Source: a virus
Length of the DNA stretch: 64,000 bases
IMG/VR virus record: IMGVR_UViG_3300031088_000759
Strand: one strand, 5' to 3'
The notes beneath the pieces are model-generated. The model was not told the origin of the DNA and searched no databases. It saw only the letters and a program-made list of their open reading frames with translations. The translations under genes and the position numbers were made by a program. Below, piece by piece: positions 2,938 to 46,810 of this stretch (position 1 is its first letter; the number at the start of each line of letters is the position of its first letter).

Positions 2938-2947
2938 TGTGATACCT

Positions 2948-15480: not shown

Positions 15481-16215
15481 TCAGAACATCTTATTGAAGT
15501 ACTCAGGTGGAACAACCCACATGTTTTCCATTTCATCATCCATTCCTATCACAATACCACTGAAACTTTTGCTCCCGGCAACTCGTGCTGCAGCAAACCT
15601 ATGATTACCATCAATCACATAAGCATTTCCTTTATGTACTAAAACTCTCATAAGACTTGGAGGGTGCCCTTCATCCTCATCATCATAAACAGTAATACTA
15701 TCTGTCTCACCCGTATGAGCATAATAATTGACTAAATCTTCTGAAACGAATTTTTGAACAGTATGTAAAGGAACATTTGTGGAATACCCTTCTCTCACAT
15801 CTTCCACATCAAATTCATCAAATAATTCATCTAATTGTTCAAAACGATAAAAAACACTACCATCATCATTCGTCTCAATATACGCCGTATCATGCTCAGG
15901 AGAAGCAAAAACGATTCCATAATCATCGCTTTGTTTTTCAAAGACATATTCAAAATCTTCTTCATAATACTTATCCAAAGAAAAATCTTCAGGAAGTGAT
16001 AATGTTTTTTCAACATTTGCCTCACGAGAATAGTCTCTTCTATCATTGTGTAAGCTGAACAATATTTGAGAATTCTGTGCTTCTTCATATGCTACTCTAG
16101 CTTCTTCAATAGTTGAATAATGTTCTTCACTGCTTAATTTATACTTACATCCGCCATCTTTTTTAGCTACGCATATGCCAGGATCACCATTTGGTTTGAT
16201 ATGATATTTCTTCAT
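15481..16215 (-). CDS. HCCH-module protein with ParB/Srx-like C-terminal domain
   Basis: N-term KYHIKPNGDPGICVAKKDGGCKYKLSSEEHYSTIEEARVAYE; C-term VLVHKGNAYVIDGNHRFAAARVAG. Confidence 0.75.
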   Translation of the reverse strand: MKKYHIKPNGDPGICVAKKDGGCKYKLSSEEHYSTIEEARVAYEEAQNSQILFSLHNDRRDYSREANVEKTLSLPEDFSLDKYYEEDFEYVFEKQSDDYGIVFASPEHDTAYIETNDDGSVFYRFEQLDELFDEFDVEDVREGYSTNVPLHTVQKFVSEDLVNYYAHTGETDSITVYDDEDEGHPPSLMRVLVHKGNAYVIDGNHRFAAARVAGSKSFSGIVIGMDDEMENMWVVPPEYFNKMF

Positions 16216-21846: not shown

Positions 21847-23103
21847 TTATTTTCGTTTTTCTTCGTTTTCGTAGTAAGGTGAAAAATCCTCATTTGCTAT
21901 CTTTTCCAAATCGTCTTTATCAAACCATCCAAATATTTGATGTTTACCATTTTTTAAGTTAGCTTTCGGAGAGTAATTAATAAAAAACTTAGATTCCCTA
22001 ACGTCTTTTATGTCTGAATCTGCATTACTGCTCAAAGCATAAAGATTTCCATTAGTATTAAGTTTTGTTCGTGTTGGTTCAATGTACTCATCAGCTGCTT
22101 TTTTAGCTACATTACTACGGACTTCTTGTTCTTTAGATTTGCGACTTACATCTCGTTCATCATAGAACAAAGCCCCATTGCTGAAGGGATTGTTGCTACT
22201 TCCTAACCTCAAAGTACCATTGTCATTCGAGTCTTTGACTTTTTTCATCGTAGCAATCATTGCAGGGTTATCAGACACAATAGCTAAGAAGTCGCCACGC
22301 TGAAATTCTCCTTGCGGTGGTTTTATTGAATCTTTTTGTTCACCTTTTTCAAGTTTTACAGCAGCATTCACAAGATCGTCACGTTTAGTAGGAAGAGGCT
22401 TAACTTTACCTTTTAACATTTCACGAAGTTCAGATACTTTCATTCTATTGTACTTCCAGCTAGATTTCATGTCATCGTAGGATCTGTAATTCTTAAAGCG
22501 TTCTAATGCTGTTTCAATTCTTTCTTCTTTGCGCTCATCAGATCTGTATCCATGGCTCCTATCCTCACCAGCAATAACTAATACGCCTTTACCATCTTTC
22601 TCCAAATAAGTTATATCTTCTGGCTTAGATTCTCCATTGCTCAATCTTTTTGAAATTGCCGCTAAACCCCATTCTTCTTCAGCTTTAAAATCAGCTGAAT
22701 AAGTTAATCCAATGACTTTATCATCACTATCTTCTGAGCGAAGAAAACCTATGCCTGCTTCTCTGTTATTTACTTCTAATTCGGACATTTCTTTTAATTC
22801 TTCAGCACTTACTTCTTTAAGCAATTGTTGATAAGTAGTGTCTTTGAATTGTCTTTCATCCCTTGCTTTGAAATCATTCTCTAATTTTTTGATAAGTTTA
22901 TCAGCTTTTTGAACATGATTAGTATAAGGATTCGATTTTTTGAATAATCCAAACATACCTTTTTCTTTAACCATAGATTTTTCGTAAGCTTCTTGTGCTT
23001 CTTCTTTGTTGTTGAAGTGTGAGCCACCCACTGGACAATCTCTCACATCAGCACTACAAGGCTTAGGTCCATTCTCTGTATTGTGAAATTTCGTATTTGT
23101 CAT
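21847..23103 (-). CDS. HCCH-module protein, cargo unknown (about 418 aa)
   Basis: Start reassigned to MTNTKFHNTENGPKPCSADVRDCPVGGSHFNNKEEAQEAYE (AGGAG SD). Confidence 0.8.
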   Translation of the reverse strand: MTNTKFHNTENGPKPCSADVRDCPVGGSHFNNKEEAQEAYEKSMVKEKGMFGLFKKSNPYTNHVQKADKLIKKLENDFKARDERQFKDTTYQQLLKEVSAEELKEMSELEVNNREAGIGFLRSEDSDDKVIGLTYSADFKAEEEWGLAAISKRLSNGESKPEDITYLEKDGKGVLVIAGEDRSHGYRSDERKEERIETALERFKNYRSYDDMKSSWKYNRMKVSELREMLKGKVKPLPTKRDDLVNAAVKLEKGEQKDSIKPPQGEFQRGDFLAIVSDNPAMIATMKKVKDSNDNGTLRLGSSNNPFSNGALFYDERDVSRKSKEQEVRSNVAKKAADEYIEPTRTKLNTNGNLYALSSNADSDIKDVRESKFFINYSPKANLKNGKHQIFGWFDKDDLEKIANEDFSPYYENEEKRK

Positions 23104-24926: not shown

Positions 24927-26072
24927 TCAGTCTTTTTCCAGACCTTCTTTATACCATACATTATAAGAGCCAGTTCCCATTTGTAATTTACTTGGGATAC
25001 GAATCAACTCATCAGTATTGTAGTTCTTCTTATTCACAATCTTTAAAGAACCATCTGGGTTTTTAATAGCATAAGTACTATTTTTATTATTGAAAAGAAC
25101 TTTTAAGTATTTTTGACCATCTGTTGTCGTAAATTCATAAGACAAACGCGCTGTATCTGTTCCAGAATTCACAACAGCAGTAACATTCCACTGCTCATCT
25201 TCACTGAGAGAAATTTCTGTTTCGCTAATGTATCCTTTGCCATCGTTCTGCCTGAAATTAACAATACTATAATCTTTTACTTGTTGGCTATTTCCTTTTT
25301 TCCCGCTGCTTTTTACGATATCATAAATTTCTTGAGAATTAACTGTATGATTCTTAGAATTAAAATCCTCAGCATAGGTTCTCATCTTCGCATCAAGTTT
25401 TTGAATTACGGCAGCTTCATCCTTGCCACCCTCTTTACTGTAAATATTCAACAATTCTAATTTTTCAGAGTTATCTAACGTGAAAGCGTCTGCGTTGATA
25501 AGAGATGACACTCTTTGAATCCCCGCTGCTGAATTAGTAGCAGCACCAAACTTAGTTTCCAAGTTCATTACATTTTCATCATTTGCAATAACTACAAGAT
25601 CACTATCAGCGCTATTTCCACCACTATTTCCTGATTGAATGGAAAAATTATCAGAACCTATCTTTTCAGCGGTTAATTTTCTTAAAGATTGTTTCCATTC
25701 ACTAAGGATTTTTTCTATTTCTTCTTCTTTCAGTCCACGTAGTGCTACAACTCTTTGAGAATCATTTATTTGACTAATATTTTTCGCAATAACTTTTATG
25801 TCTGATCCAGTGGCAACTGCTTCTTCGCATAAATTAGTCACTAACGATACATTAGAGCCAAAAACTTGAGTATTCTGCTTGACAATTTTTTTGACTAATT
25901 TAGGCGTTCCAACTTTTTGCTGCAAAAGGTTTTCTGCGGCTGAAATTGCTTCTTGTTTTGAAGAATAGTGTGTGCGTTCAGAATTATCTTCATCTCGAAA
26001 CAAGCAATTTCCTGGCTGAGCTCTACATATTCCAGCACGCATAGTATCTGGATTAATGTGATATCTTGACAT
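24927..26072 (-). CDS. HCCH-module protein with putative PD-(D/E)xK restriction-like nuclease cargo
   Basis: N-term RYHINPDTMRAGICRAQPGNCLF...HYSSKQEA; ADSDLVV...MNLETKFG resembles D-x(n)-ExK; directly upstream of a DNA MTase. Confidence 0.55.
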   Translation of the reverse strand: MSRYHINPDTMRAGICRAQPGNCLFRDEDNSERTHYSSKQEAISAAENLLQQKVGTPKLVKKIVKQNTQVFGSNVSLVTNLCEEAVATGSDIKVIAKNISQINDSQRVVALRGLKEEEIEKILSEWKQSLRKLTAEKIGSDNFSIQSGNSGGNSADSDLVVIANDENVMNLETKFGAATNSAAGIQRVSSLINADAFTLDNSEKLELLNIYSKEGGKDEAAVIQKLDAKMRTYAEDFNSKNHTVNSQEIYDIVKSSGKKGNSQQVKDYSIVNFRQNDGKGYISETEISLSEDEQWNVTAVVNSGTDTARLSYEFTTTDGQKYLKVLFNNKNSTYAIKNPDGSLKIVNKKNYNTDELIRIPSKLQMGTGSYNVWYKEGLEKD

Positions 26073-26073: not shown

Positions 26074-26126
26074 AAAAAACTCCTTAGACAATAACTTTTA
26101 TCAGTTAATTATCTAACGAGTTTTTT
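26074..26126 (-). promoter_or_regulatory. Hairpin/terminator whose 3' arm contains the SD of the nuclease-cargo gene
   Basis: Minus-strand RNA AAAAAACUC G UUAGA U AAU U AACU-GAUAAA-AGUU AUU G UCUAA G GAGUUUUUU C AUG. Confidence 0.6.
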
Positions 26127-27090: not shown

Positions 27091-27480
27091 TCAGAGATCC
27101 ATCTCGTTGTCAATAGTATAAAAGACCTTGCGAATTCCTCGTGCCTTAAGTGCCTCCTGGCAACGCTTACAGGGCTTGCTCATACGAGGCTCACCATTCT
27201 TGATAACACGTGCAATGTAAATCGTAGCACCATTAAGATCAACCTTGCGGCAAGCATTAAGAGCAGCCACCTCAGCATGAACAGCTGCATGCTCAGCAGC
27301 CACTTCATCAGTAAGATATGCCGGATCATTCACACCATAATTAATTCCCACAGAGATAGTCTTTCCCGACTTTCGAATAACAGCACCATGCTTATAGTTG
27401 CACTCACTCATCTTTGCCAGCTCACAAGCCTGATCAAGATACTTCTGATCCGACTTGGACATCTCCTTGACATACTTCAT
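27091..27480 (-). CDS. Zinc-dependent cytidine/deoxycytidylate deaminase family protein
   Basis: HGAVI, HAEVAAL, MSKPCKRC; GAAAGG SD. Confidence 0.85.
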   Translation of the reverse strand: MKYVKEMSKSDQKYLDQACELAKMSECNYKHGAVIRKSGKTISVGINYGVNDPAYLTDEVAAEHAAVHAEVAALNACRKVDLNGATIYIARVIKNGEPRMSKPCKRCQEALKARGIRKVFYTIDNEMDL

Positions 27481-27660: not shown

Positions 27661-28974
27661 TCAACTTAAACTTCTGTTACGAGCAATCCAGTAGCCCATA
27701 ATCCATCTTCTAACTTCATCCGCACTATCACCACGTGATGAGCCATATAAATAAGAATTAGAAGAAGGATAATAAAAACCTTCAGAAGCTCTTGTCAAAA
27801 GTTCTCTACCATTGTAAAGACCCATATACTCATCAGGAAAACCTTTATAGCACTTAACACTTAAAGATTCATCAAAGTATTCTTCTTTTTTCAGCTTCGC
27901 AAACATTTGTGATTCAGCAAAAGTGTTATCCTCTAACTGAACTAGATGAACATATTCATGCAGTAGAACACTTGATTCAGCGTTGTTTGTATAATCTTTC
28001 TTCGCAAGAATCACGCTACCTTGAAGGAATTTTGTGTCTTTTATTTCATACATAGGCTTGTCAATAGTTTGTAATTTACCATTGAAATGTACTTTTGAAC
28101 TGTCAGAAATCTTTTTTCCCCGAGATTTTGTTGATAAACCTTCTCCAATCCATACTTCATCATAGATATCCGAGTCAGCACGTTTGACTTTAGCACGTGA
28201 ACCCCAACCTTTGCCCATCTCATCTTTATACACGAAATCTCTAATATAGACAGTTCCGTCCTCTAAGTCTTTTATCATTTCACGCTCAATCTCACCAATT
28301 TTTGCCCCACTTGATTTAACAGACACACCAAACGAAGTATTGCCAGAATGTTGTCCATCAAACTTATTGTTGTCTATACGAGTAGCTTTAGCAAGAATAG
28401 GAGTTCCTGATAAACGCTTTTTAACACTGTTAGGCAACACTTCCACGGCTTTATTCAGCTGCTTAGACAAACTTCCATAAACATCATTAGATAGTGATTC
28501 TCCAGTGGTTGTAAGCTCATTCATAAGCTTATGTGTTTCCTCTTCCACTGTTTTAAGCTGCTCTTGACTGAGTTGTTGTTCGAAAATGTCAAAAGAAACA
28601 CGTTTACTCAGTTCTTCATCAAAAATTTCGCCAATTTTCACTAAATTATCTGGTGAAAAATTTTTTAAATAAGAGACAAACTTGTCAACATCAGAAGAGG
28701 AAATATTAATGTTCTCATTAAACAATTCATCAATTTTTGATTTTAAAATTTCAACATCTTTTCTTGCGTTCTTGTTTGAGCCTTTCTTCACAGTTGTGGT
28801 TACACTGTTTTTCTGTGAAAGTCTAGTTTCAGCAACTTTCACTGCTTCTGTGAAATTTTCATAGTGAGATTCAGTACCACCAAATCTACATTCTCTTAGA
28901 GTAGCATTACACGGTTTAACCTCATCGTTACTATTAATGTGAAACTTTTTTAGTTTAGCCATGATTTTTATCAT
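27661..28974 (-). CDS. HCCH-module protein with HEXXH zincin-like metallopeptidase cargo
   Basis: KFHINSNDEVKPCNATLRECRFGGTESHYENFTEA; C-term VLLHEYVHLVQ and downstream RELLTRASEG; start could be 28962. Confidence 0.68.
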   Translation of the reverse strand: MIKIMAKLKKFHINSNDEVKPCNATLRECRFGGTESHYENFTEAVKVAETRLSQKNSVTTTVKKGSNKNARKDVEILKSKIDELFNENINISSSDVDKFVSYLKNFSPDNLVKIGEIFDEELSKRVSFDIFEQQLSQEQLKTVEEETHKLMNELTTTGESLSNDVYGSLSKQLNKAVEVLPNSVKKRLSGTPILAKATRIDNNKFDGQHSGNTSFGVSVKSSGAKIGEIEREMIKDLEDGTVYIRDFVYKDEMGKGWGSRAKVKRADSDIYDEVWIGEGLSTKSRGKKISDSSKVHFNGKLQTIDKPMYEIKDTKFLQGSVILAKKDYTNNAESSVLLHEYVHLVQLEDNTFAESQMFAKLKKEEYFDESLSVKCYKGFPDEYMGLYNGRELLTRASEGFYYPSSNSYLYGSSRGDSADEVRRWIMGYWIARNRSLS

Positions 28975-30763: not shown

Positions 30764-31207
30764 ATGAATGTTAAAAACTTTAAGAAAATGACCAATGAAG
30801 AAATCGAAGATTTTATTACCAATAACGATCACAATGAAGAATATGATGAAGAACACGATCTTGTTCATATCTATTGGGACTGCGAAAAATGCGAAGCTGA
30901 GTCAGAAAAAGAATATCGCTACCAAGTTCTCATTTCAAAAGATTCTGGTAATTTGCCTTTTATGGAAAGATCTATTTCTAAAATCATTTTCGCAGGAGAT
31001 GTAAAAGTTGGAGATTACACTAAATATCTAAGTCGTCCTGGAGTATCTAATTATCCTTATGAATATGCTGAATGTGTAGCATTGTGGTATGATTCAAATC
31101 TTACGGGCAAAGTAACCATAGAATGGAAGAAAACAAACACATCTGATAAGCCTTTCGCTGTTATGTATGACACTCTTGACAATGTCAATATTATCCGTTC
31201 TCTTTAA
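30764..31207 (+). CDS. Hypothetical protein, 147 aa
   Basis: GAGG SD, promoter and terminator bracket the ORF. Confidence 0.72.
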   Translation: MNVKNFKKMTNEEIEDFITNNDHNEEYDEEHDLVHIYWDCEKCEAESEKEYRYQVLISKDSGNLPFMERSISKIIFAGDVKVGDYTKYLSRPGVSNYPYEYAECVALWYDSNLTGKVTIEWKKTNTSDKPFAVMYDTLDNVNIIRSL

Positions 31208-31219
31208 AAAACATTCTAT

Positions 31220-31259
31220 AATAAATCCCTCCAGTATGTTTTAACTGGAGGGATTTATT
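31220..31259. terminator. Bidirectional terminator-like hairpin
   Basis: Perfect 16-bp IR between convergent genes. Confidence 0.7.
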
Positions 31260-31283
31260 GTTTTATGTTTATTACAAGAATTT

Positions 31284-32546
31284 TCAGAAATCATCAACGC
31301 TTAAATCAGGATGATTATCTACCCAAGAAGTTGCCTGGTTTGTACGAACTGATGGATTAGAATGAGGATAAAGATCACTTAACTTGTCAATTTTATACTC
31401 TCTTGATTTTTCATCATATTCTTTATTAATCTCTTGAACCTTTACAGAAGCTTGAGATTTATCTGCTTGTGTAATATTTTCAGCATCTTGAATCTTTCTA
31501 TCATTTCTTAAATAATCATTGTTAAAACGATTTATGCTATTCTCAATATTGGTTTTCTGACGTTTCCTGCCGGATTGCGACAAACCTCTATATTCAGGGT
31601 TCTTATCAAAAACAAAACCTTTCTTATTATTGGACTTTTCATAATCTCTTATCTCATGTAGTTTTTCTACTGCTTCATTACTGCGCTTAAGCAAAACTTT
31701 ATTGGCTTTCTCTAATCTTTGTATCTCTTTATCGTTGTTGATAATTTTGTTCAACTTTTTAATTCTGTTTGAAGGATCAGAAGGTTTAACAGCTTTATTT
31801 GTAAGATTATTGTTTCGCTTAGGCTTATCATCCATTGTTATTGAAGTAGGAATAGAAGCCCAGTCAGGAAGCTCCGGGTTAGAAGCTTTGGAATGATACG
31901 GTTCGTACTTATCAAACTCTTTCAAACCTTCTAAATCGTCTTGAAATTCATCAGGGACTCGATAACGACTTCTTGTATAACTGTCATCATTGTAATAGCC
32001 AGCAATTGTTAAAGTAGAGTCTACATGTTCATCAATATTTACATAATCATGGTCTAAATATGTGTAAGCATCATCATAAGAATAGTCTATATTATTATCT
32101 TCATCATAAGGAACAGCAGCATATTGTTCTACTATAAGATATCCATCACGATCCAAAGCTACATAAGTGCCATAATCGTTAAAGCCTGGGATTCTGTCTA
32201 AACCAATAGTTTGAGCGATATCTTCTTTTAGTTTCTCTTCTTTACCGTGATGTTGATTATGCACATCATTAATGTATTTTCTGATTTCAGATGCTTTTTT
32301 GCCTCTCAATTCTCCAAAACCAATTACATCAGTGTCAAAAACATGATTATCAATATCATATGTTCTATTCTTTGGCTTTTTCAAAGGTTTTTGAACAGTT
32401 TGAGAATTCATTGTTTTCTCATATGCTGATTGTGCTTCTTCTTTTGTCGAAAAATGTTCTGATTCATCCAGACCTAATCGACATTGGATTTTAGCATCAC
32501 ATTTACCGGCACGCCCTGTTTCCTTGTTAAAGTGGTATTTCGCCAT
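31284..32546 (-). CDS. HCCH-module protein, cargo unknown (acidic aromatic region plus coiled coil)
   Basis: MAKYHFNKETGRAGKCDAKIQCRLGLDESEHFSTKEEAQSAYE; AGGAG SD. Confidence 0.82.
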   Translation of the reverse strand: MAKYHFNKETGRAGKCDAKIQCRLGLDESEHFSTKEEAQSAYEKTMNSQTVQKPLKKPKNRTYDIDNHVFDTDVIGFGELRGKKASEIRKYINDVHNQHHGKEEKLKEDIAQTIGLDRIPGFNDYGTYVALDRDGYLIVEQYAAVPYDEDNNIDYSYDDAYTYLDHDYVNIDEHVDSTLTIAGYYNDDSYTRSRYRVPDEFQDDLEGLKEFDKYEPYHSKASNPELPDWASIPTSITMDDKPKRNNNLTNKAVKPSDPSNRIKKLNKIINNDKEIQRLEKANKVLLKRSNEAVEKLHEIRDYEKSNNKKGFVFDKNPEYRGLSQSGRKRQKTNIENSINRFNNDYLRNDRKIQDAENITQADKSQASVKVQEINKEYDEKSREYKIDKLSDLYPHSNPSVRTNQATSWVDNHPDLSVDDF

Positions 32547-32590
32547 AACATTACACTCCTATTTTAATGCTCTATTGTTGTCTTTCCGAA

Positions 32591-33991
32591 TCAGTTAACA
32601 GCTAAAAAGTTTTTAGGCATTTTTGGAGCTGGTTCGTCATAAACCCATCCTGATTCCCAAACTTTACGACGTTCTTCTTCTATTTTGTTTCTATATATTG
32701 CTACTGAATTAAAATTGTTCTCATAAGAATTTTCTATCATTTTAAAAGGTTTAGCAAAATCCTCTAAATCTCTTGAGCCACTTTCGAGTAAGTATTTGTT
32801 AGACTTTAACTCGTGCCCTAGCACACTACCTCTTTCATATGTTCTTTTAACAGTAACGTTTCTTCTTCCTTTTTTCTCCGTAGCATTGTAACTAGCAGTT
32901 CCACGATCAGCAAGTAAATATTCTTTCAATGCTGAGCCATCTTCTAAAAGCTCAGCCTCTTTATAAGCATTCTCCAAAACTTCATACTCTCTGATTTTTC
33001 TATGCGCATCTTTTACTTTGTCAAGATCGTACTTACTATACCTTTTATTATAACTATTAAATTTTTGAACTTCTTCTAATGAAATATTATCAAAATCCTT
33101 GTTCTCTAGCTTGCTTAGTATAGCACCAGCAGCATCAGCTATTTCTTTGTCATTTTTTACACGCTGTATAGCATTTTCATAACTTTGCTTTGAATCACGA
33201 TACTTATCCATATTTTTTCTGTAATCTTCAACATTATTGATAAACCAAGCAGGTGCTTTTCCATCTTCTATCAAAGATCTTTCGTTTTTAAGATGAGTAT
33301 AGTTCTTATTTTTCTCATAATCAGAATGGTACTTATCAAATTGTTCTTTTGTAATTTTATTGTCAAAAACAAAGTAATTGTATGTTGAATCAAAATCATC
33401 ATCATAATCAGTAACATAATTTGGATGTTCAGAAGTAATCTCATTGTTCAGAGCTAAACAACCATCTTCATGGCTATCATAATCCTCGCAATAGCACTCT
33501 CTGTTTCCACCACCTTGACGTGCTGAAACTATGACTACATATTCTGAATCAGGATGAAAGCTGTCTTTGCTAACATTGTATGGTTCTTCTTTAACTAAAT
33601 CATCTATTTTTTCAAAGAAGGTTCCACGAGGTCTCATAACATATGATGACTCCACGAGATAATCATCAGGTGAAACATCTAAAGGTTCCTCGATTTCTCC
33701 TTTCTCAACCTTGTTCAATAACTCATAATGTTTATTCCAAGCACTGACTAGTTTCTTTCTGTTTTCCTGTGAAATACCCGATAAATCAACGTTAACACCG
33801 GAAAGGTTTTGAGAAGTAGAAGCTTTTTGTTTCTTAACAACTGTTGAAAGATTTTGAGTTTCTTCAAAAGCTTTTTGTGCTTCTTCTCTAGTTTCAAAAT
33901 GCTCGGATTCTGTCAAACCTAATCGACATTGCACCTGTGCTTTACATAAACCTGTTTTTCCAGTGTCTCTATTGAAGTGATATTTCGCCAT
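32591..33991 (-). CDS. HCCH-module protein, cargo unknown
   Basis: MAKYHFNRDTGKTGLCKAQVQCRLGLTESEHFETREEAQKAFE; cargo has ARQGGGNRECYC...HPNYVTDYDDDFDSTY. Confidence 0.82.
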   Translation of the reverse strand: MAKYHFNRDTGKTGLCKAQVQCRLGLTESEHFETREEAQKAFEETQNLSTVVKKQKASTSQNLSGVNVDLSGISQENRKKLVSAWNKHYELLNKVEKGEIEEPLDVSPDDYLVESSYVMRPRGTFFEKIDDLVKEEPYNVSKDSFHPDSEYVVIVSARQGGGNRECYCEDYDSHEDGCLALNNEITSEHPNYVTDYDDDFDSTYNYFVFDNKITKEQFDKYHSDYEKNKNYTHLKNERSLIEDGKAPAWFINNVEDYRKNMDKYRDSKQSYENAIQRVKNDKEIADAAGAILSKLENKDFDNISLEEVQKFNSYNKRYSKYDLDKVKDAHRKIREYEVLENAYKEAELLEDGSALKEYLLADRGTASYNATEKKGRRNVTVKRTYERGSVLGHELKSNKYLLESGSRDLEDFAKPFKMIENSYENNFNSVAIYRNKIEEERRKVWESGWVYDEPAPKMPKNFLAVN

Positions 33992-34089
33992 ATTCTTATC
34001 CTTTATGTGTTACAATCTTTACAATCATTTTTCTAAACCATTTTCAGGAACAAATATGGCAATTAATGACCACTGACCCTTATAAGCAA

Positions 34090-34183
34090 GTTTTAGAAAA
34101 AATTCTTCAAAAAACAGAAATACACCCCGAAAAAGACTGGTATAATCTTTGTTTTTCGAGGTGTATTTCTAAGCCGTTTTCAG
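34090..34183 (-). repeat. Conserved intergenic hairpin element, copy 3
   Basis: 19-bp stem 34116-34134/34152-34170 with one G.U pair on the minus strand, 17-nt loop; flanks gttttagaaaaaattctt and aagccgttttcag. Confidence 0.65.
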
Positions 34184-34320
34184 TTGTTGGATATAGTTAA
34201 TTTTTTATCTAATGCTACAGCTTCTGCTTCATCTTTATTACTATAATGAACGCCAGGAGCATAGCAATCCCAGGTATTCTTACAAAAAACAACTTTATTA
34301 AGATTGTCAATATGGTACAT
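34180..34320 (-). CDS. Stand-alone HCCH module, 46 aa, no cargo (not in ORF track)
   Basis: Hand translation MYHIDNLNKVVFCKNTWDCYAPGVHYSNKDEAEAVALDKKLTISNN; GAGGA SD just upstream. Confidence 0.8.
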   Translation of the reverse strand: MYHIDNLNKVVFCKNTWDCYAPGVHYSNKDEAEAVALDKKLTISNN

Positions 34321-34392
34321 TTTTATCCTCATTTTTCAACTCTACAAGAAATACAACCTTCATCTTATCTAAAACGAAAACTTTATTAAACA

Positions 34393-35334
34393 TTAGACAA
34401 ATTTCAGAAAACTTACACTATCATGCAAACCTTGAAAAGTTTGATAACCACAGTTATTGTATTCTCTCTCTACTACACCTTCAGAAATGTCTTTCTCCAA
34501 CTGATCCCAGAAAGCTTCTGAACCAGTACAACCACCTTGATCTTCACCAATATTAACAATCTTAATATGAGGATATTCCTTTTTCACAAGATCATAAACT
34601 TCTTTATCAATTTTCCCATCCATAGGTGCCCAAGACATTACTACATGTGTTATATCTTTGCCATACTTCTTCAAACTCTTCACAGCATCAAGATTTTCTA
34701 TTCCATCATCCGTCTGAACCTTTCCCCAAGACTTATCATCACTCCCAATAGTCTTCACCCCCTCATCACGCATTGCTTTTACCAGGTACCCTTTGCCTGC
34801 CATCGGATCTAAAACAATAGGATCAGAACCACCTAAATCATCTTTCATCTTTTCTTTAAGATTTTTACTAAACCTTTTTGTTATCTTAGCGAAATACCCA
34901 GCATCTTGACAATAAATATGAACAGTCATGCCTAACATGCTTGCATCATAAGAAAATCTTGGAGGAACTTCATCAGGAATATTCCCATTTGAAAAATCTT
35001 CGACAAATTTCTTCTCTACCTCATTAAAAGAGTTAATTTCACGTCCAAAAGATAAGAATTCAGACATTCTTTCAAAGTCTTCAAAAACTTCCTCTGCTTT
35101 CTTGTTTGGCGAAATAACAATAGGAGACAAGAGACTACTCGTGAAACTTTTCTCAACCTTTTTTACTACTGGAAAAGACTTTGTGTTCATAGAATTTTCA
35201 AAAGCAAGTTGTGCTTCTTCACGAGTTTTAAAATGCTCATGGAAATCAGACTTCGTTGCTTTGCAAGTTTCAGGTGTTTTAGCTTGACACCTTCTTGGTA
35301 CACCATCTCTACTAATATGGTATTTTGCTGTCAT
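34393..35334 (-). CDS. HCCH-module protein with SAM-dependent methyltransferase-like cargo
   Basis: KYHISRDGVPRRCQAKTPETCK...HFKTREEAQLAFE; VLDPMAGKGYL, VMSWAP, IGEDQGGCTG. Confidence 0.65.
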   Translation of the reverse strand: MTAKYHISRDGVPRRCQAKTPETCKATKSDFHEHFKTREEAQLAFENSMNTKSFPVVKKVEKSFTSSLLSPIVISPNKKAEEVFEDFERMSEFLSFGREINSFNEVEKKFVEDFSNGNIPDEVPPRFSYDASMLGMTVHIYCQDAGYFAKITKRFSKNLKEKMKDDLGGSDPIVLDPMAGKGYLVKAMRDEGVKTIGSDDKSWGKVQTDDGIENLDAVKSLKKYGKDITHVVMSWAPMDGKIDKEVYDLVKKEYPHIKIVNIGEDQGGCTGSEAFWDQLEKDISEGVVEREYNNCGYQTFQGLHDSVSFLKFV

Positions 35335-35382
35335 CTGAAACCCCTTTTTGAAATATTTTTAAACTTTATGATTCACTTCTTT

Positions 35383-36462
35383 TCACGATTCTTTTGTGAA
35401 ATCCTCATAGGAAATCGGTGTTGGTTGCGAACCTTCATTGTCAAAAATGAGAGGTTTTTCTGTGAATACACCCATCTTAGTTAATTGAGCAATGTTTTCA
35501 GCATTTTTTGAACGGTATTTACTTCCAGGTTGTGTAGCTTGTGATTCTATTATAGAAGATGGCAAATACCTTCCACCTAAGCCTTTTCCGTTTGTAGCGT
35601 AATCGTTCAAGCCAGAAGCATATCTTTGACCAGCGCGTTTTACAGATGTTTTAGGGTCTACATCAATAAAAATAGCTTTTATATTGTTGTATCCTCTATG
35701 TTTTATATCTTCTGTCTTTTCTGTAACACTCCATGCTTTGTTCATAGTCATGTCCATAATAATATTAGAACGCTGAGAAACTAACTTTTCAAAAATCTTA
35801 TCTGTGAGGTCTAATGATTCTTCGTGAATAAGTGCTGAAGCTTCCATAGGTGTTAAACCTTTTACTTCTGGGACCATACCTTTTTCGGCCATTATTTCTT
35901 TAATGTCATCAGCACTTAAAGAAACATAATCTTTCTGATCTATTTCAACATAGTTCTTGATAATGGTTGACTTTCCGGCACCTGCTAATCCACCTGAAAA
36001 GATAATTTCACCATTGTTTTTTGCTATGTTCGATTGTACCATGAATTCTTCAATAATTTCTTCTTGCTGTTTTTTGCGTTTATCTGAGTAATTGTAATAC
36101 CCGTAAGAGGCATTAGCATAATTATTCTCATCACTAGGTGGTGCGTTGCGCATTTTTGAAATTGCTTCTGAAACATACTCTTTTCTTTCGGCAAGTTCGA
36201 TACCAGTTAGGGATCGTTTGCTCAATCTTGCTTCTTCAAGCATTCTTTGCTGATGTTCTGCTTTTTCCTCAAAAGTATTATTGTTCTTTTTTACTAATGG
36301 CTTAAAAGTATTGAATGTTTGTTTCAATTCGTATGCTGATTGAGCAGCTTCAATTGTAGAATAGTGCTCTTTTAAATCTTGTGTAGTTGCTTTGCATGTT
36401 TCAGGTGATTTAGCCTGACATTTTCTTGCTACACCATCTTTACTAATGTGGAATTTGCTCAT
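35383..36462 (-). CDS. HCCH-module protein with zeta-toxin-like P-loop kinase cargo
   Basis: KFHISKDGVARKCQAKSPETCK...HYSTIEAAQSAYE; GGLAGAGKST, SADDIKE, IHEES, NIIMDMTM, IFIDVD...RAGQRY, GRYLP. Confidence 0.8.
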   Translation of the reverse strand: MSKFHISKDGVARKCQAKSPETCKATTQDLKEHYSTIEAAQSAYELKQTFNTFKPLVKKNNNTFEEKAEHQQRMLEEARLSKRSLTGIELAERKEYVSEAISKMRNAPPSDENNYANASYGYYNYSDKRKKQQEEIIEEFMVQSNIAKNNGEIIFSGGLAGAGKSTIIKNYVEIDQKDYVSLSADDIKEIMAEKGMVPEVKGLTPMEASALIHEESLDLTDKIFEKLVSQRSNIIMDMTMNKAWSVTEKTEDIKHRGYNNIKAIFIDVDPKTSVKRAGQRYASGLNDYATNGKGLGGRYLPSSIIESQATQPGSKYRSKNAENIAQLTKMGVFTEKPLIFDNEGSQPTPISYEDFTKES

Positions 36463-36522
36463 TTTTACCTCATGTTTGATACTTTTATTGACTAATCTTA
36501 TTTCTAATAATATTGCAAAATA

Positions 36523-36560
36523 AAGAACAAAGACAAAACTTGAATCTTGTCTTTGTTCTT
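36523..36560 (-). terminator. Terminator-like hairpin between the HAD and zeta cargo genes
   Basis: Perfect 14-bp IR. Confidence 0.6.
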
Positions 36561-36593
36561 ATCTTTTTAAATCAAGGCAACGAAGCTTATGAA

Positions 36594-37490
36594 TCAATCT
36601 CGAATGATAAGTGAGGCTTCTACTGATGATTCTGTTTCTTCACTAGGGTCAACAAGAGTTGAATGGTGAGAGTTATCAAATAGCGGCTTATCACTGGTTG
36701 TGTCACCAAATGCTAAAATCCTTTTGAACCTGTTGATTCCCAGTTTTTCAATGTAGCCTTGTTTTGCTTTTCCGCCGAACATACCTTCAATCATACCGTT
36801 GAGAGAACCATCTTCATCAGTAAGGTATTCACTACCCTTACCAAAAAACCCATTTCGTTCGGCAAAAGGCTGAACAAGGAAGTTTGGGGAACCACTGATA
36901 AGCTGAATTTCCCATCCACGACGCTTAAACTCTTTCAACTGATCCATAGTTGAATAGAATTGATTATCGTTTTGTTCATAACCATCTAAGAATTCTTCTA
37001 CTTTAAGATCTTCGATTTTCATACCATGAATCTGTTCACGATACTTTTCAGCAAGTTTCACAATAACTTTTTCGTTTTTTGGGTTTTTCTTCCATTTTTT
37101 AGGAAGATTGCCCAAATCAATTGCTCCGCTATCATGAAGATAAATAGCATGGTCAAGAACTAATGAGCCACGAGTCAAGGTTCCGTCAACATCAGAAAGA
37201 ACGGCATATTTTGCTTGAGGGTCATGTGGGACCTCAATTTCTTCTGGTGTAATAGAGAATTCTCTATCCTTGTATTCTTCTTGTACACGTGGACGTTCGT
37301 TTTCAGGAACGTTTTCAATACTCTTGTTAACACCATCCAAAGGGTTGTTCATTTCATTCATATATTTTTCATAATTTTCACGAACTTCTTTTTCGGATTC
37401 ACCATGAGCTACTACATCAGAAAGTCTGCACTGTTTCTGAGCTTTACAAATAGAAGGTGTTCCATCTTTACTAATATGCCAATTCGTCAT
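36594..37490 (-). CDS. HCCH-module protein with HAD-IB (SerB-like) phosphatase cargo
   Basis: Start MTNWHISKDGTPSICKAQKQCRLSDVVAHGES; SDVDGTLT, LISGSP, K, AFGDTTSDKPL. Confidence 0.82.
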   Translation of the reverse strand: MTNWHISKDGTPSICKAQKQCRLSDVVAHGESEKEVRENYEKYMNEMNNPLDGVNKSIENVPENERPRVQEEYKDREFSITPEEIEVPHDPQAKYAVLSDVDGTLTRGSLVLDHAIYLHDSGAIDLGNLPKKWKKNPKNEKVIVKLAEKYREQIHGMKIEDLKVEEFLDGYEQNDNQFYSTMDQLKEFKRRGWEIQLISGSPNFLVQPFAERNGFFGKGSEYLTDEDGSLNGMIEGMFGGKAKQGYIEKLGINRFKRILAFGDTTSDKPLFDNSHHSTLVDPSEETESSVEASLIIRD

Positions 37491-37694
37491 AAACTCTACC
37501 TTTGTTAAATATATTCTATCATAAGCTTTTCTAAAAACATTTGAAAACAATGCTATATCATCAAAAAAACTTATTCTACAACAGTATCAATTTCGGTTAA
37601 TGATAGCACATAAAATTCACAAAAGTCAAAAACTTAGCATTACTTAACTTATCTCATCTACAGTGCTAAATATCTTTTATTTTGAAATTTACAC

Positions 37695-38414
37695 TCAGAA
37701 AAACTTTGGCAAAGATACAGGATTTCTTAATGAGTTATTTTTCCAATTGTACACTAACCAGGCAGTTCTTCCGTTTCCGTCAACAAAGCCATGAATCCAT
37801 AATTGTTGTTTTGTGAATTCCTCAGCAGTTAATTGATCACCATATTCATAAAGATTGAACATTAATCTTTCAACATCATTATGGTTTGCTGAACTTCCTC
37901 CAGAAACAAAAGTCACAGGAGTTGAACGATATTTTCCTCTATTATCCGGTTCAACAACACCAGCTAATTTTTCAATATATTTATAATCAATAGGAACATT
38001 ATTCTGTGAATCTTCAGAAAACTTATTATATCCTTCAATCAATGTTTTAGCTCGCTCAACACCAACACTCTGTTTCACACATTCTTCCATAACTCTGTTC
38101 ACAACATTCGCTGGATTGTCAGTGTGTTTTTTATTGACATCTGAAATTAATTCTTTATGAATACGTGAATCTGACAATTCAGCGTATTTTTCATCAGTGG
38201 TATTTTGCCTTAGAGATTTCATAGTTTCTTTATCAAAAGTTGAAACTGAGGATATTGTTCCATAATCATTTGACAACATATTTTCTAATTTTAAGGATGC
38301 TTTACTCTTATTTTCGAAGTGAAGTTCAGTGTTGCTTACGGGGCAGTTTCCGGGTTTAGCATTGCAAATCCCTACTTCTTTTGTCTCATTGTTTATATGA
38401 TATTTTGTAGCCAT
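37695..38414 (-). CDS. HCCH-module protein with Fic/Doc domain cargo
   Basis: KYHINNETKEVGICNAKPGNCPVSNTELHFEN; GKYRSTPV; IHGFVDGNGRTAW. Confidence 0.82.
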   Translation of the reverse strand: MATKYHINNETKEVGICNAKPGNCPVSNTELHFENKSKASLKLENMLSNDYGTISSVSTFDKETMKSLRQNTTDEKYAELSDSRIHKELISDVNKKHTDNPANVVNRVMEECVKQSVGVERAKTLIEGYNKFSEDSQNNVPIDYKYIEKLAGVVEPDNRGKYRSTPVTFVSGGSSANHNDVERLMFNLYEYGDQLTAEEFTKQQLWIHGFVDGNGRTAWLVYNWKNNSLRNPVSLPKFF

Positions 38415-38627: not shown

Positions 38628-39347
38628 ATGGACACCATTCAGCCTAAACCTGTAATCTCAGGACATGAGGACAACAGTGAAGACCCGCTTGAACTCACTG
38701 TAATCGTAGAAGACACTAAAAACTTCACCGAACCAGAACTAATTCAAGCAGTCGCAGAATCAGTGATCAGTTTCGTCCCTGTTCCCAGCCAAATGCCCGA
38801 AAATTCACACTTTGCGCAATGGATACAAGGAAGATTTCGAAAACTTCTCAAAAGAATGAAACCAAATTATTTCGTAAAACTGCCCAAAGAACTTGAAAAC
38901 AACAACATTGCCTTCTCCACCTACAAAAAAGGTAATGTCAACCTCATAATTATTGAACCTCAGCCTAAAAGCTTCACTCTTCCTGTTCTTAAAAGAGCGC
39001 AAGTGTCTGGTTTGTCTCTATTGCCTATTGAAACATATCCTAAAGCCACAATGTTTGGCAAAGTTGAGATTGTTATTAACGAAAATTTGACAATGAGCGC
39101 ATCTAAATCAGCTATTGCAGCTGCTCATGCTCTTCAACTATTCCGTGATGATGCCTACTTGAACAATAAACTTACTTATGAAGTTCTGATGAGATCAATG
39201 CCTGTTCATATTGTATGGCAAAAAATTGAAAAAGAAACCGATGATCAGGATTTTACAGTAGTTATTCGAGATGCTGGTTTGACCGAAGTTGAACCAGGGA
39301 GTATTACCGCTGCAGTTCGCGTAAGAGGGTCATTTTTTCTAAGGTGA
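38628..39347 (+). CDS. Peptidyl-tRNA hydrolase (PTH2)-like protein, actinobacterial type
   Basis: WIQGRFRKLLKR, VEIVINENLTMSASKSAIAAAHA, VVIRDAGLTEVEPGSITA. Confidence 0.72.
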   Translation: MDTIQPKPVISGHEDNSEDPLELTVIVEDTKNFTEPELIQAVAESVISFVPVPSQMPENSHFAQWIQGRFRKLLKRMKPNYFVKLPKELENNNIAFSTYKKGNVNLIIIEPQPKSFTLPVLKRAQVSGLSLLPIETYPKATMFGKVEIVINENLTMSASKSAIAAAHALQLFRDDAYLNNKLTYEVLMRSMPVHIVWQKIEKETDDQDFTVVIRDAGLTEVEPGSITAAVRVRGSFFLR

Positions 39348-41454: not shown

Positions 41455-43725
41455 TTAGATAATCTCTTTCACAAAGCGAGTCTTTCCGAAATCCCATAAA
41501 CGAGGCAAATCATTCAACTCAGCTAACTGCTTCTCAGTATAACCCTCCACATATTTAAGCTCCGGGTCATTCCTAAAACGCTTCAACCTGAAACCAAACT
41601 TATGCTTACGCAAGCCTTCATGAACATACCGATAATCAGGCATCAAGATCTTGTCCAAAGTAAAACCAAGGGAATGATACAAACCACCATTAGACACTTG
41701 ATGATCCGCAAAAGTAATAATCTGAGAACACCCCATAGACTTACCCCACTTCTCACCAGCTCTCAACAATTTGCCCATACCACCCACAACAGTCTGAGCT
41801 GTACAATAACGATCAAGATACAACTCATTAACATTCTTACGCCAAATACTTACAGCAAGAATATTCGTCAAATCATCATGATCCACCAAAGCAAAATACT
41901 TAGCACCACCAGTAAAACCCTGAATATGATGCTTATTACAAAAATCTTTCGCATCCTTAGAACTTACCTCTACAACCACAGTATTTCTAGCATAAACTTT
42001 TTTACCTTGAGAAACACCAAGCTTATAGGCTAACATAGATTTCACAATATCTTGCTTATCTCTCCACTCATCCTCCCAAACAGTGATAAGCTGAATGCCC
42101 GCATCATTACAAGCCTTCCACTTATCATAGTGGTAGTTTTTAGGATTACTTGAATTTTTACTCAATTGTTTTTCACTATGCCAATACAGACCATTGTACT
42201 CAATAGCTATCTTTTTCTCAGGAATATAAATGCCAAGCTCTTTAGGAGGAATGATTGATCTACTTCCTCTATGAATAGTTCCCTCATAGATACTACTTAC
42301 AAAATCATACACTTCTTTTTCTCCTTTTGATGAACCTTTACCAAAACCTAAACACTCATGACAGCCTTTATTCTCAATAACGCTTTTCACTGATCTTAAC
42401 CATTTTCCACCGCAAACTTTACAATGCCATAAAAACTTATCTATATTTGATTTTCTAAGTTGATCAAATTCTATATCATTCTCTTTCGAAAATAGTTCAG
42501 GTAAGAATGGATACAAAGTTGTTAAATCATTGTAGCCTTCAAGAATTTCTAAACCAGCCACAAACGGAGAACCACCCTTATTAATTACAACTCTTCCCAC
42601 AGGAGATATCCATTTGCCACCACTAACAGGGCAAATCCAAGAAAAATTCTTTTCTGACTTTCTTGAAACATCAGTTGGTCTTACGGGGAAATTATTTTCA
42701 TAATCCCACAATTTAGCAATTTCTGGTTCTGTAGTTGCTAAATCATTAATTCCTTCAAGAACAGAAGCAGATTTACAAATAGTACAACCTTCCTTATGCT
42801 GACCTTTTATTTGCGCATAGTACTCATGTCCATATTTACAAAAGAACAAAGCATATTTAGTAGTCTTTTCAGCTGAATTTAAAACTTCAAAAGAGTTTTT
42901 AGGAGATATCTTGTGTTTCAAAGCATCACTGTCTTTAACCAATACACCTGGTGGAATGCTATAATTTGCTCTTGCCAACCCTCTTTCGGGAAGAATTAAC
43001 TCATGATTGTATTCTCTTTTTAAACTTGTTGTTCTGACACAAAGTAAGCCTAAGCTTCTATAAATTCGCAAATCATTATTTAATAGATCATTGTGCTCAG
43101 TTCTTTTCAAACCAGCATTCCACGAAAGTATTTTTTGAATAGGAACAGGATTATCATCATGTAATTTAATTTTATATGAAGCTGAATCAACTCTATTGGC
43201 TAATTCATCAATCCAAAAAGCAGGATCAACATATGAAAGCCATTTATCAACAGTCATCATAGTTTTTTGAGCACTTATTTTAGCAGACCCTGCATAACTC
43301 TTACCATCATATATTTTTACTATTTCTCTGTTTTTATCAATTTTTAAAACAGGCTTTGAGTAATCTCTGGGGTTTATTTTATTAAAGATAGATTGAGCAA
43401 CTATTTTAGCATCTGCATCCATTAAATGTTGTTCTGTAATGACTATTAAATTCAGATCGTTTTTCCAAGCAGTTTCTTCAATAATTGACAATGAGTTAAG
43501 CACTCTTCCATTGCGGGACTTCCTTGCCCAGCTATTCGGAACATACCTCAGACAAAACAATTCATCTTTTTCAGAGCGAACAGCATAAGGAAACATTATC
43601 TGTTTATCCATAACAGTATATCTTTTATTGGTTTTTTCAAAAACAAGTCCAACCTTTTTCAGTTCTTTAATCAAGTCATCTGGAAGATCTACCCACCATT
43701 GTTCTTTTGATATGTTCAGTGTCAT
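41455..43725 (-). CDS. Zinc-ribbon endonuclease with N-terminal unknown domain and C-terminal homing-endonuclease-associated (Hef-like) domain
   Basis: About 3 Zn-ribbon units; ELGIYIPEKKIAIEYNGLYWHS; KVYARNTVVVEVSSKDAKDFCNKHHIQG...VVGGMGKLL...ITFADHQVSNGGLYHSLGF. Confidence 0.72.
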   Translation of the reverse strand: MTLNISKEQWWVDLPDDLIKELKKVGLVFEKTNKRYTVMDKQIMFPYAVRSEKDELFCLRYVPNSWARKSRNGRVLNSLSIIEETAWKNDLNLIVITEQHLMDADAKIVAQSIFNKINPRDYSKPVLKIDKNREIVKIYDGKSYAGSAKISAQKTMMTVDKWLSYVDPAFWIDELANRVDSASYKIKLHDDNPVPIQKILSWNAGLKRTEHNDLLNNDLRIYRSLGLLCVRTTSLKREYNHELILPERGLARANYSIPPGVLVKDSDALKHKISPKNSFEVLNSAEKTTKYALFFCKYGHEYYAQIKGQHKEGCTICKSASVLEGINDLATTEPEIAKLWDYENNFPVRPTDVSRKSEKNFSWICPVSGGKWISPVGRVVINKGGSPFVAGLEILEGYNDLTTLYPFLPELFSKENDIEFDQLRKSNIDKFLWHCKVCGGKWLRSVKSVIENKGCHECLGFGKGSSKGEKEVYDFVSSIYEGTIHRGSRSIIPPKELGIYIPEKKIAIEYNGLYWHSEKQLSKNSSNPKNYHYDKWKACNDAGIQLITVWEDEWRDKQDIVKSMLAYKLGVSQGKKVYARNTVVVEVSSKDAKDFCNKHHIQGFTGGAKYFALVDHDDLTNILAVSIWRKNVNELYLDRYCTAQTVVGGMGKLLRAGEKWGKSMGCSQIITFADHQVSNGGLYHSLGFTLDKILMPDYRYVHEGLRKHKFGFRLKRFRNDPELKYVEGYTEKQLAELNDLPRLWDFGKTRFVKEII

Positions 43726-45598: not shown

Positions 45599-46810
45599 TC
45601 ATCCGCTACTGTCAATTTTTCCTACGAACACACCTGTTTCAGGGTTATATGTAGCACCTGCATTGTATCCACCACCGAATAATGCTTCAACATCAGATTT
45701 AGTAAAACCATGCTTATCAATCTTCTGTTTGTCTAATTGCACTTGTTCAGCATAATATGAAGTTCCCAATTTATTTGATACAACTTCTTTTTGCTTAAGC
45801 TCAGATTTAAGCTCCGCAACAGAAGTTGTTCCAGTAGCACGTTGCATCTTTCCTATACTTGCAACTCGTGGGAAAGCACCTTCAAGCTCTTGCTTAATCT
45901 TTTCGTTAGTGTTTTTATGGTAATAGAATTGTTCTACACTATTCCCAGCTGCTCCACTTCGCACTATCTTTTCAATTGTTTTACTTGGCAAGTTTTTATT
46001 TTGTACAACTTTATCCCAATTACTATTTGGCAATTCTGGGCTACGCTGAATCATTTCATCAACATATCCGTCAATAACTTTTTTATTGCTAAGGTGAGGG
46101 AATCTTGTGTAAACCTGTGCCTGTAATTCATTGTCATTGAGCTTCTTCAAACTGTCAGTGCCATAATACCCTTTATTAATCGCTTCTGTTATAAGATATG
46201 GTTCACTATTGATTACCTCATCTCTTTTTTCATCGCTCAATTTGTTATTCATATTAAACGCTAAAGCTGATAGTGTTTTTATCTCTCTTGCTGATAACTT
46301 CTGAATCACGCTAGCTTTTTCATCATCAATAGAATCATCTCCAGCAATTCTTACTCGCTCTTCTGCTCCCGCGAAATATTGTCTCATAACAGGCAAAATC
46401 TGATGTTTTGTCAAGTCTTCAACAGGATAGTTCTTGTGCTTTAAAATAGATTTTGATTCTTCAGAGTTAGGTGTTGAAGTTTTGTAAAGTTCACGAAGAG
46501 CTTCAGGTCCAGTATTGTGATTCGAAACAACAGAAGCACGAACACGAGAACTTCCTCTTTGTGCAGCATCTAAAAGAATAGTTTGATCATCAGTGAATTT
46601 TGCTACCTTGTTGAGTTTAGACGCACTTAGCTTGCCAGCATTTTTTACACCCTCAGGAACAATCTCTTCGACCATTTTCTTTTCATATCCTGCACGTGCT
46701 TCTTGTGCTGTGTCATAATGTTCTTCCTCAGAAGCATTAAACCTACACTTGTGAACAGCATTACATATTCCCGGTTCACCTTTATCATTAACGTGATACT
46801 TAGTTGCCAT
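45599..46810 (-). CDS. HCCH-module protein with helical-repeat (LRV/HEAT-like) cargo
   Basis: KYHVNDKGEPGICNAVHKCRFNASEEEHYDTAQEARAGYE; repeats such as RVRASVVSNHNTGPEALRELY and VVQNKNLPSKTIEKI. Confidence 0.72.
   Translation of the reverse strand: MATKYHVNDKGEPGICNAVHKCRFNASEEEHYDTAQEARAGYEKKMVEEIVPEGVKNAGKLSASKLNKVAKFTDDQTILLDAAQRGSSRVRASVVSNHNTGPEALRELYKTSTPNSEESKSILKHKNYPVEDLTKHQILPVMRQYFAGAEERVRIAGDDSIDDEKASVIQKLSAREIKTLSALAFNMNNKLSDEKRDEVINSEPYLITEAINKGYYGTDSLKKLNDNELQAQVYTRFPHLSNKKVIDGYVDEMIQRSPELPNSNWDKVVQNKNLPSKTIEKIVRSGAAGNSVEQFYYHKNTNEKIKQELEGAFPRVASIGKMQRATGTTSVAELKSELKQKEVVSNKLGTSYYAEQVQLDKQKIDKHGFTKSDVEALFGGGYNAGATYNPETGVFVGKIDSSG

Follow-up and report, generated by a model that had tools for sequence, protein, structure and literature searches.

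Unrelated enzymes behind a common N-terminal HCCH module in a tandem gene array of a giant phage-like element

Why would one short protein module stand in front of a series of unrelated enzymes, in genes set side by side on a single strand? The question is raised by a locus in the IMG/VR virus record IMGVR_UViG_3300031088_000759, of which a stretch of 64,000 nucleotides (nt), here called the window, was analysed. The window comes from a phyllosphere metagenome contig of 727,572 bp and 34% GC. At positions 31284-38414 it holds seven open reading frames (ORFs) that an initial annotation, made from the sequence alone, had described as an array of genes with a common N-terminal module, and had interpreted as a diversifying effector array in which the module duplicates locally and captures new 3' cargos. 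The seven ORFs do exist, are adjacent and all lie on the minus strand, and each matches the module profile with an E value of 1e-20 to 1e-25 (Table 1). They are regarded here, with moderate confidence, as members of a large and undescribed multigene family, in which the module would serve as an adaptor on giant non-cellular phage-like elements with actinobacterial-type genes.

The module comprises some 47 amino acids at the N-terminus, beginning with a conserved (K)YH(I) and ending in an EEA..AYE helix. When a profile of the seven array copies was searched against all six-frame ORFs of the window, a total of 12 copies was obtained, after which the next best ORF scores an E value of 0.09; the only invariant columns among the 12 are the His, Cys, Cys and His (HCCH) for which the module is named here. 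Among 1.84 billion representatives, a profile of these 12 sequences matched 5,319 clusters with E<=1e-3, of which 690 reached E<=1e-10. Across 148 database members the same four residues and two Ala are invariant, and in 145 of the 150 matches listed the module begins at residues 1-7, in proteins of 63-478 amino acids. Two or three tandem copies of the module were seen within one protein in P0042, P0043 and P0044. The module-bearing cluster members derive from metagenome assemblies and lack informative names. No Pfam, PHROG or NCBIfam model lies over the module, PADLOC gave none, and a sequence search of the PDB returned 0 matches. The module appears to be a new, undescribed domain and the marker of a large gene family.

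An AlphaFold model of the module, from a 52-row alignment, is compact (predicted local distance difference test [pLDDT] 86): residues 4-6 and 12-14 pair as a hairpin, a Cys loop follows, and residues 34-49 form a helix. The module is accordingly predicted to be an autonomous domain composed of a beta-hairpin, a Cys loop and a C-terminal helix, and its four His and Cys ligands, to judge from the sequences, probably constitute a structural zinc site. In the AlphaFold2 model of the full zeta protein, the module (residues 1-52) is followed by a linker (53-61) with pLDDT <50, a helical region (64-117) and the kinase (127-359). Similarity between the paralogs ends where this linker sits, which argues for a flexible joint at that point. 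Two fold relationships were considered for the module. Kinship with Kunitz/BPTI domains (Foldseek E 0.6, VIA Z 4.1) lies in the chance range and is read as small-domain topology, and the hybrid-binding domain of RNase H1, an Atlas neighbour with a template modelling (TM) score of 0.57, was not recovered in PDB fold searches and is a lead only.

Behind the module, the cargos belong to unrelated families, with one enzyme cargo per protein according to Pfam. The Fic cargo matches Pfam Fic at 3.2e-6 (28.3 bits vs a cut-off of 24) and bears the motif HGFVDGNGRTA at residue 208, followed by Trp, which replaces the final Arg of HxFx(D/E)GNGRxxR; apart from this substitution, the core catalytic motifs of the recognisable cargos are intact. 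The HAD cargo matches Pfam HAD PF12710 (2.2e-8) and NCBIfam HAD-SF-IB TIGR01488 (1.8e-13, 50.8 bits vs a cut-off of 45), with its motif I, DVDGT, at residue 100. Assignment of a zeta kinase and of an S-adenosylmethionine (SAM) fold to two further cargos by the initial annotation holds. The former matches Pfam Zeta_toxin PF06414 at 1.8e-19, carries the Walker A sequence GLAGAGKS and has an extra helical region of ~65 residues between linker and kinase; it also gives a match (6.5e-8) to a P-loop stretch in a 'minor head protein' of PHROG. The latter has no Pfam match at the sequence level, and is recognised by an Atlas feature score of 0.96, TM scores of 0.70-0.75 to SAM-methyltransferase clusters and the glycine-rich motif I VLDPMAGKG. 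Cargo B has no Pfam, PHROG, NCBIfam or PADLOC match, and its Atlas model is poor and gave no usable match. Among the 148 relatives, the recognisable cargos are ADP-ribosyltransferases (ART; three), zeta kinases (two), 2H phosphoesterase, HD, GmrSD_C and GNAT domains, and most cargos belong to no family.

The arrangement of the genes bears on how the array is expressed and on how it arose. From the Fic gene to gene A the intergenic gaps measure 204, 131, 48, 60, 188 and 44 nt, and no ORF of immunity or antitoxin type lies between the array genes. There is likewise no epsilon-type antitoxin gene 5' of the zeta gene, where a hairpin and a promoter motif are all that the 131 nt contain. For the HAD gene the most probable start is the ATG at 37490, rather than the TTG at 37550, and the short gene may start at 34320. 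The promoter-like motif T[TA]AGA[AT]A is found 40-54 nt 5' of the start codon in eight of the 12 HCCH genes, vs five of the 38 remaining minus-strand genes (Fisher p = 7e-4), and also precedes HCCH genes in relatives with GC contents of 33-42%. The SAM gene and gene A have no such motif of their own and follow the zeta gene and gene B at distances of 48 and 44 nt, respectively, and the array can thus be divided into the units Fic, HAD, zeta-SAM, short and B-A. Its genes are probably transcribed singly or as two bicistrons (zeta-SAM and B-A), from a common promoter-like signal of TTAGAAA type. The two probable bicistrons coincide exactly with the pairs in which the genes have a module subtype in common.

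The same two pairs supplied the nucleotide identities on which local duplication of the module had been proposed. Both were reproduced exactly, at 60 of 69 nt for the SAM and zeta genes (35257-35325 vs 36388-36456) and 83 of 116 nt for genes A and B (32431-32546 vs 33876-33991). The paired cargos are dissimilar, as had been reported: beyond about residue 52, the BLASTP E values are 0.015 and 0.87, and hhalign gives cargos A and B a probability of 0.35%. Module and cargo phylogenies, which the initial annotation had proposed to compare, are incongruent. On a module tree of 50 columns with several long branches, the zeta-linked modules, a group named beforehand, do not constitute one clade (approximately unbiased test p = 0.0105; delta log-likelihood 53).

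The direction of this exchange is indicated by relatives of the zeta and SAM genes. Fifteen HCCH-zeta proteins can be aligned from the module through the linker and helical region to the end of the kinase, with identities of 33-68%, and on these alignments the HCCH-zeta fusion is old. Among the 15, the C-x7-C 'PETC[KR]AT' module occurs solely in the window protein and in its 68% relative P0002, the other thirteen having modules of other subtypes. This subtype is also present in the neighbouring SAM-like gene, in its relative on contig L083 and with a third cargo in L084, and a SAM-like homolog in the element G003 (39%) bears a canonical module. Because the older fusions are widespread, the module would seem to have been replaced or converted on existing zeta and SAM genes, rather than a cargo captured. 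Of the mechanism first proposed, exchange between modules and the incongruence it leaves are therefore supported, and for the zeta and SAM genes the capture of a new cargo is not.

Nor do the data point to an array that is diversifying at present. At the identical residues of one pair of modules the same codon is used in 20 of 28 cases (14 expected; p = 0.014, uncorrected, with 66 pairs), and in the other pair in 19 of 33 (15.7 expected; p = 0.15). Recent duplication of the modules finds no support, as the codon-identity test fails correction for 66 pairs. Since synonymous sites are near saturation, the nucleotide identities of the modules are mostly to be ascribed to protein conservation and AT-rich biased codon usage. 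Full-length relatives at 54-68% identity exist for the fusions of gene A, the SAM gene, the zeta gene and the outlying HCCH gene at 45599, as well as for the cargo-free copy. In such relatives the modules are 71-92% identical vs 54-63% for the cargos, with the zeta pair an exception (66% vs 68%). Fragments 95-99% identical to the contig are present in other phyllosphere and soil runs, and the runs with such fragments cover 27-28 of 30 bins of the array region. The conservation of the module, the near-saturated synonymous sites and the array-wide near-identical fragments together speak for purifying selection and slow turnover, rather than for rapidly diversifying cassettes. A single joint between 30310 and 33077 in the run data was disregarded, as one of its sides measures 20 nt.

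Content and order of the array do differ among its relatives (L083, L144, L143 and G003), which is a further point on which the original proposal stands. The 5.4-kb contig L083 carries five tandem HCCH genes, including full-length relatives of the SAM gene (L083_1111, 54%) and of gene A (L083_3633, 54%, whose paralog L083_2191 is 33% identical). A 44-residue counterpart of the cargo-free short gene is 61% identical to it and forms with it a starred clade (99/98) on the module tree. The fifth gene has a different cargo, no cargo-B gene is present, and the short copy lies at another place. In L144 an HCCH-zeta gene adjoins a block of methyltransferase, S2P protease and NrdI genes that is 24 kb away from it in the window, and in G003 only one of 11 HCCH genes within 100 kb is homologous over its full length to a gene of the array. 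The 164-kb contig L168 (33% GC) has five HCCH genes in 21 kb (581-5915 and 8972-10954), and this array indicates that arrays recur across the clade. Three of the L168 genes are tandem full-length paralogs of ~585 residues with near-identical modules, and two more lie on the other strand. The variable content in these relatives shows that some HCCH genes have simply been duplicated, whereas others stand beside genes with unrelated cargos.

What kind of element carries these genes? Two related complete elements from IMG/VR, both CheckV 100%, are G003 (344,889 bp, inverted terminal repeats, S2P protease 46%, 14 modules) and G001 (420,240 bp, direct terminal repeats, S2P protease 34%, 10 modules, two HCCH-zeta genes). 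Genes for uL2 and RNA polymerase (RNAP) beta are absent from the related complete elements, in a search whose controls matched in 14 of 14 genomes, and these elements are therefore not cells. In the BFVD, at least 11 module-bearing proteins (TM 0.67-0.89, one of them named zeta toxin) all belong to the uncultured 'Siphoviridae sp. ctHip2'. Searches of 50,697 phage records and 72,556 plasmids with the array (blastn) and the module (tblastn) gave no credible match, with Clostridium phage noise only at E<=10, and a search of viral contigs with the SAM-like protein found no match. A metagenome search with the zeta alignment returned mostly high-GC zeta genes without the module. The AlphaFold DB clusters contain a single cellular match to the module. 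ClpB-like ATPase, one of the few window proteins of actinobacterial appearance, has distant matches only among genome contigs, the best (56%) being to a Quadrisphaera metagenome-assembled genome, and 401 sampled genomes of the phylum of this organism (apparently Actinomycetota) yielded 0 matches to the module. Among the collections searched, the module is confined to giant non-cellular elements.

The window itself consists mostly of orphan genes, with a few that look actinobacterial: an RpfB architecture, S2P protease, NrdI, Hsp20 and the ClpB-like ATPase. The nearest named proteins to the S2P protease are from Streptomyces, with closer relatives on contigs of 343-683 kb. The RpfB and M23-type genes suggest a host with an actinobacterial-type cell wall. 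No tRNA genes are present in the window, and a PHROG search of ten of its orphan ORFs revealed no hallmark gene and matched only the M23-type peptidase/endolysin domain. The carrier is termed 'phage-like' here, its virion being putative. The largest phage genomes reported reach 735 kb, to which the 727-kb contig would come near if it is viral (PMC7162821).

Taken as an adaptor, the module would give each array protein a simple plan: an N-terminal domain of ~47 residues, a disordered linker of about ten residues and a single enzyme. The common module would bring chemically different host-modifying enzymes to one destination, and could do so by loading them into a particle, or by co-transferring them with the DNA, such that they act at the start of infection. 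This version, the preferred one, is given a chance of about a third. It is favoured by the location of the module at the extreme N-terminus, by the resemblance of the zeta cargo to a segment of a 'minor head protein' and by the precedent for enzymes that are packaged in phage heads and injected (PMC5512222; PMC10052503). The family would evolve through gene gain, loss and tandem duplication, with the module occasionally swapped between neighbouring paralogs across the flexible linker. We infer the adaptor role, the destination and the action on the host, and the array proteins may be effectors, as they had been called. The most explicit form of the proposal is tentative: the HCCH module as a zinc-binding delivery adaptor with which actinobacteria-associated phage-like elements of up to 727 kb would load at least a dozen host-modifying enzymes into the particle, or bring them over with the DNA, and in which exchange would keep the tag matched to its receptor.

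In phage T4, the capsid-targeting sequence (CTS) is found on the internal proteins IPI-III and on Alt. The T4 CTS proteins and the propeptide-bearing ejection proteins of phiKZ and SPN3US resemble the HCCH family in that a common N-terminal element is present on unrelated proteins of one phage, in that host-modifying enzymes, an ADP-ribosyltransferase for one, are found among the cargos, and in that no immunity genes accompany them. The T4 tag is, however, a short unfolded peptide and the HCCH module a predicted folded domain; the phiKZ and SPN3US propeptides, in turn, are not a conserved zinc domain. For the HCCH family, which has no cultured member, searches with Pfam models gave no sign of a protease, capsid or virion. 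The module terminates in A-[YF]-E, in keeping with the A-X-E sequence at which the prohead protease of SPN3US cleaves (PMC10052503), although this ending is not invariant and the Ala at P3 is the majority residue only. Polyvalent proteins likewise place disparate enzymes (ART, methylase, kinase-like, peptidase) on invasive elements and are predicted to act early on the host (Iyer et al. 2017; PMC5512222). Unlike the HCCH proteins, which are encoded by separate genes each with its own copy of the adaptor, polyvalent proteins string 2-15 domains on one chain.

Several points weigh against delivery by such an adaptor. The delivery route, the receptor and the link to a virion are hypothetical. A binding function would account more readily than a purely signalling one for the proteins with tandem modules and for the free-standing modules. 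The targeting peptide of T4 is far smaller than a folded zinc domain, and the case for zinc binding is made by inference from the conservation of the ligands. Gene content was read for the 64-kb window, out of the 727-kb contig. Moreover, Pfam models for the terminase large subunit (two TerL N-terminal models and Terminase_3), HK97 capsid, portal and tape measure found nothing in G001-G003, and the viral status of these elements thus depends on IMG/VR and the label of the submitter. The S77 prohead protease (PF03420) was not found in G001-G003 either, in a search that is uninformative, as its control matched nowhere.

The strongest alternative dispenses with packaging altogether. The module might be an intracellular targeting or regulatory zinc finger that tethers the enzymes to one macromolecule, such as a nucleic acid, RNA polymerase, the ribosome or a chaperone (for example, the ClpB-like ATPase). 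Such an intracellular target is favoured by the autonomous fold of the module and its four invariant ligands of metal-binding type, by the two- and three-module proteins, by the conserved cargo-free copies and by the Atlas neighbour with an RNase H1-type hybrid-binding domain. Set against them are the failure of the PDB to return that neighbour, its best fold match being Kunitz-like and within the chance range, and the lack of any PDB sequence match. The tether also leaves the position at residue 1 in nearly all listed members unexplained, and is considered rather unlikely.

Polymorphic toxins offer a further comparison. In type VII secretion (LXG/T7SS), contact-dependent inhibition (CDI) and Rhs systems, a conserved N-terminus is followed by swappable C-terminal domains, in tandem arrays that recombine at the junction. 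The window might correspondingly derive from a cellular Gram-positive, with the module as an LXG/T7SS-like secretion or trafficking signal and with zeta, Fic and, in relatives, ART domains as the toxins. The gaps of 44-204 nt, however, contain promoter and terminator signals and no immunity ORFs, no secretion-system genes are found among the Pfam matches of the window, and the HAD phosphatase and SAM methyltransferase are atypical toxins, being two of several non-toxin cargos. The carrier is non-cellular, as judged from the related complete elements without uL2 and RNAP beta, and the module is absent from the 401 genomes of one phylum. The exchange that was detected, furthermore, replaces the N-terminal module, and not the C-terminal tip. 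An array of cellular polymorphic toxins is therefore improbable.

No better placed, and if anything a shade less probable, is a toxin-antitoxin or abortive-infection island. The zeta P-loop kinase does retain the core motif of the epsilon/zeta systems, and the Fic domain that of the Fic systems apart from its final Arg, and PADLOC reports weak matches to SoFic and VakA. The missing epsilon or other antitoxin partner could be explained if the module were a fused, cis-acting inhibitor. The PADLOC matches are marginal, though, at ~18 bits; the zeta and Fic proteins both have the extra N-terminal module, and the zeta protein the additional helical region as well; and the module also occurs on phosphatases, methyltransferases, HD and 2H domains and many unknown domains, as well as in cargo-free copies. 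Plain tandem duplication of whole genes, with cargos homologous beyond recognition, is hardly credible. It is already contradicted for four of the six cargos, whose folds are unrelated (a P-loop kinase, a Rossmann methyltransferase, a HAD and a Fic domain), and the hhalign result speaks against it for A vs B, even though tandem full-length paralogs are real in relatives (L083_2191/L083_3633 and the three ~585-residue L168 genes).

The HCCH genes of the window are interleaved with genes for a PP2C phosphatase, HAD_SAK_2 (a 'Swiss army knife' RNA-repair HAD), a dCMP deaminase and a PTH2-like domain, to which relatives (L143) add Tpt1, NT5C and YpsA, a combination that hints at a nucleotide and RNA-repair toolkit. 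In L144 the genes for the methyltransferase, S2P protease and NrdI are contiguous, but in the window they are split by orphan genes and by three large proteins with DUF4379 repeats, which are treble-clef zinc fingers. The positions of these and other features are collected in Table 1.

Table 1. Positions in the window of the HCCH genes, candidate transcription signals and neighbouring features
Feature	Position	Strand	Details
Fic gene	37695..38414	-	HCCH module + Fic-domain cargo, 239 aa; first gene of the array; module E 4.2e-21
HAD gene	36594..37490	-	HCCH module + HAD-IB phosphatase cargo, 298 aa from ATG at 37490; module E 4.1e-23
Zeta gene	35383..36462	-	HCCH module (C-x7-C 'SPETCKAT' subtype) + zeta-type P-loop kinase, 359 aa
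SAM gene	34393..35334	-	HCCH module (C-x7-C 'SPETCKAT' subtype) + class I SAM-methyltransferase-like cargo, 313 aa
Short gene	34180..34332	-	Cargo-free HCCH module, 46-50 aa; alternative start 34320; module E 1.2e-20
Gene B	32591..33991	-	HCCH module ('KYHFN...QCRLGL' subtype) + unknown cargo B, 466 aa; module E 1.3e-24
Gene A	31284..32546	-	HCCH module ('KYHFN...QCRLGL' subtype) + unknown cargo A, 420 aa; module E 1.1e-25
HCCH gene outside array	15481..16215	-	Module E 4.5e-15
HCCH gene outside array	21847..23103	-	Module E 6.3e-11
HCCH gene outside array	24927..26072	-	Module E 1.5e-9
HCCH gene outside array	27661..28962	-	Module E 8e-9
HCCH gene outside array	45599..46810	-	Module E 6.1e-14; L082_86 67% identical over full length
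TTAGAAA promoter-like motif	34030..34036	-	45 nt before the start of gene B
Promoter-like motifs, array	34366-34372, 36501-36507, 37528-37534	-	
Promoter-like motifs, HCCH genes outside array	16252-16258, 23137-23143, 26110-26116, 46858-46864	-	
Terminator-like hairpin	36523..36560	-	Between HAD and zeta genes; 17-pair stem, then T run
Hairpin closing the array	31218..31261		18 pairs; common to convergent gene 30764-31207
PP2C phosphatase	23144-23878		
HAD_SAK_2	26390-27052		
dCMP deaminase	27091-27480		
PTH2-like domain	38628-39347		
DUF4379 repeat proteins	4533-6362, 7731-9983, 41455-43725		Up to seven repeats; Pfam E 1e-93 to 1e-96 for two
RpfB-type architecture	43974-45317		DUF348-G5-transglycosylase
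M23-type peptidase/endolysin domain	60997-61788		
Eco57I-like methyltransferase fragments	18107-20407, 23924-24871, 61887-63038		Pfam C-terminal part only

The logic of one N-terminal handle on many C-terminal enzymes is already known from polymorphic toxins, T4 and polyvalent proteins. What appear to be new are the domain itself, its scale of >5,000 clusters, the way it is restricted to giant phage-like elements with genes of actinobacterial type and the exchange of the handle between co-transcribed neighbours. The array provides a clean natural case of such module exchange across a flexible linker in co-transcribed paralogs. More than 5,000 clusters without a Pfam, PHROGs, NCBIfam or PDB entry represent a sizeable gap in annotation, and with 10-14 or more copies per element of 0.2-0.7 Mb the module offers a convenient marker of a little-known clade of giant phage-like elements in soil and on leaf surfaces. 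If the module delivers its cargos, it would amount to a portable protein-delivery tag. If it is indeed a common adaptor, it might be used as a tag for loading foreign proteins, and one receptor would route many enzymes, providing a single point of experimental access to the means by which uncultured giant elements take over their hosts.

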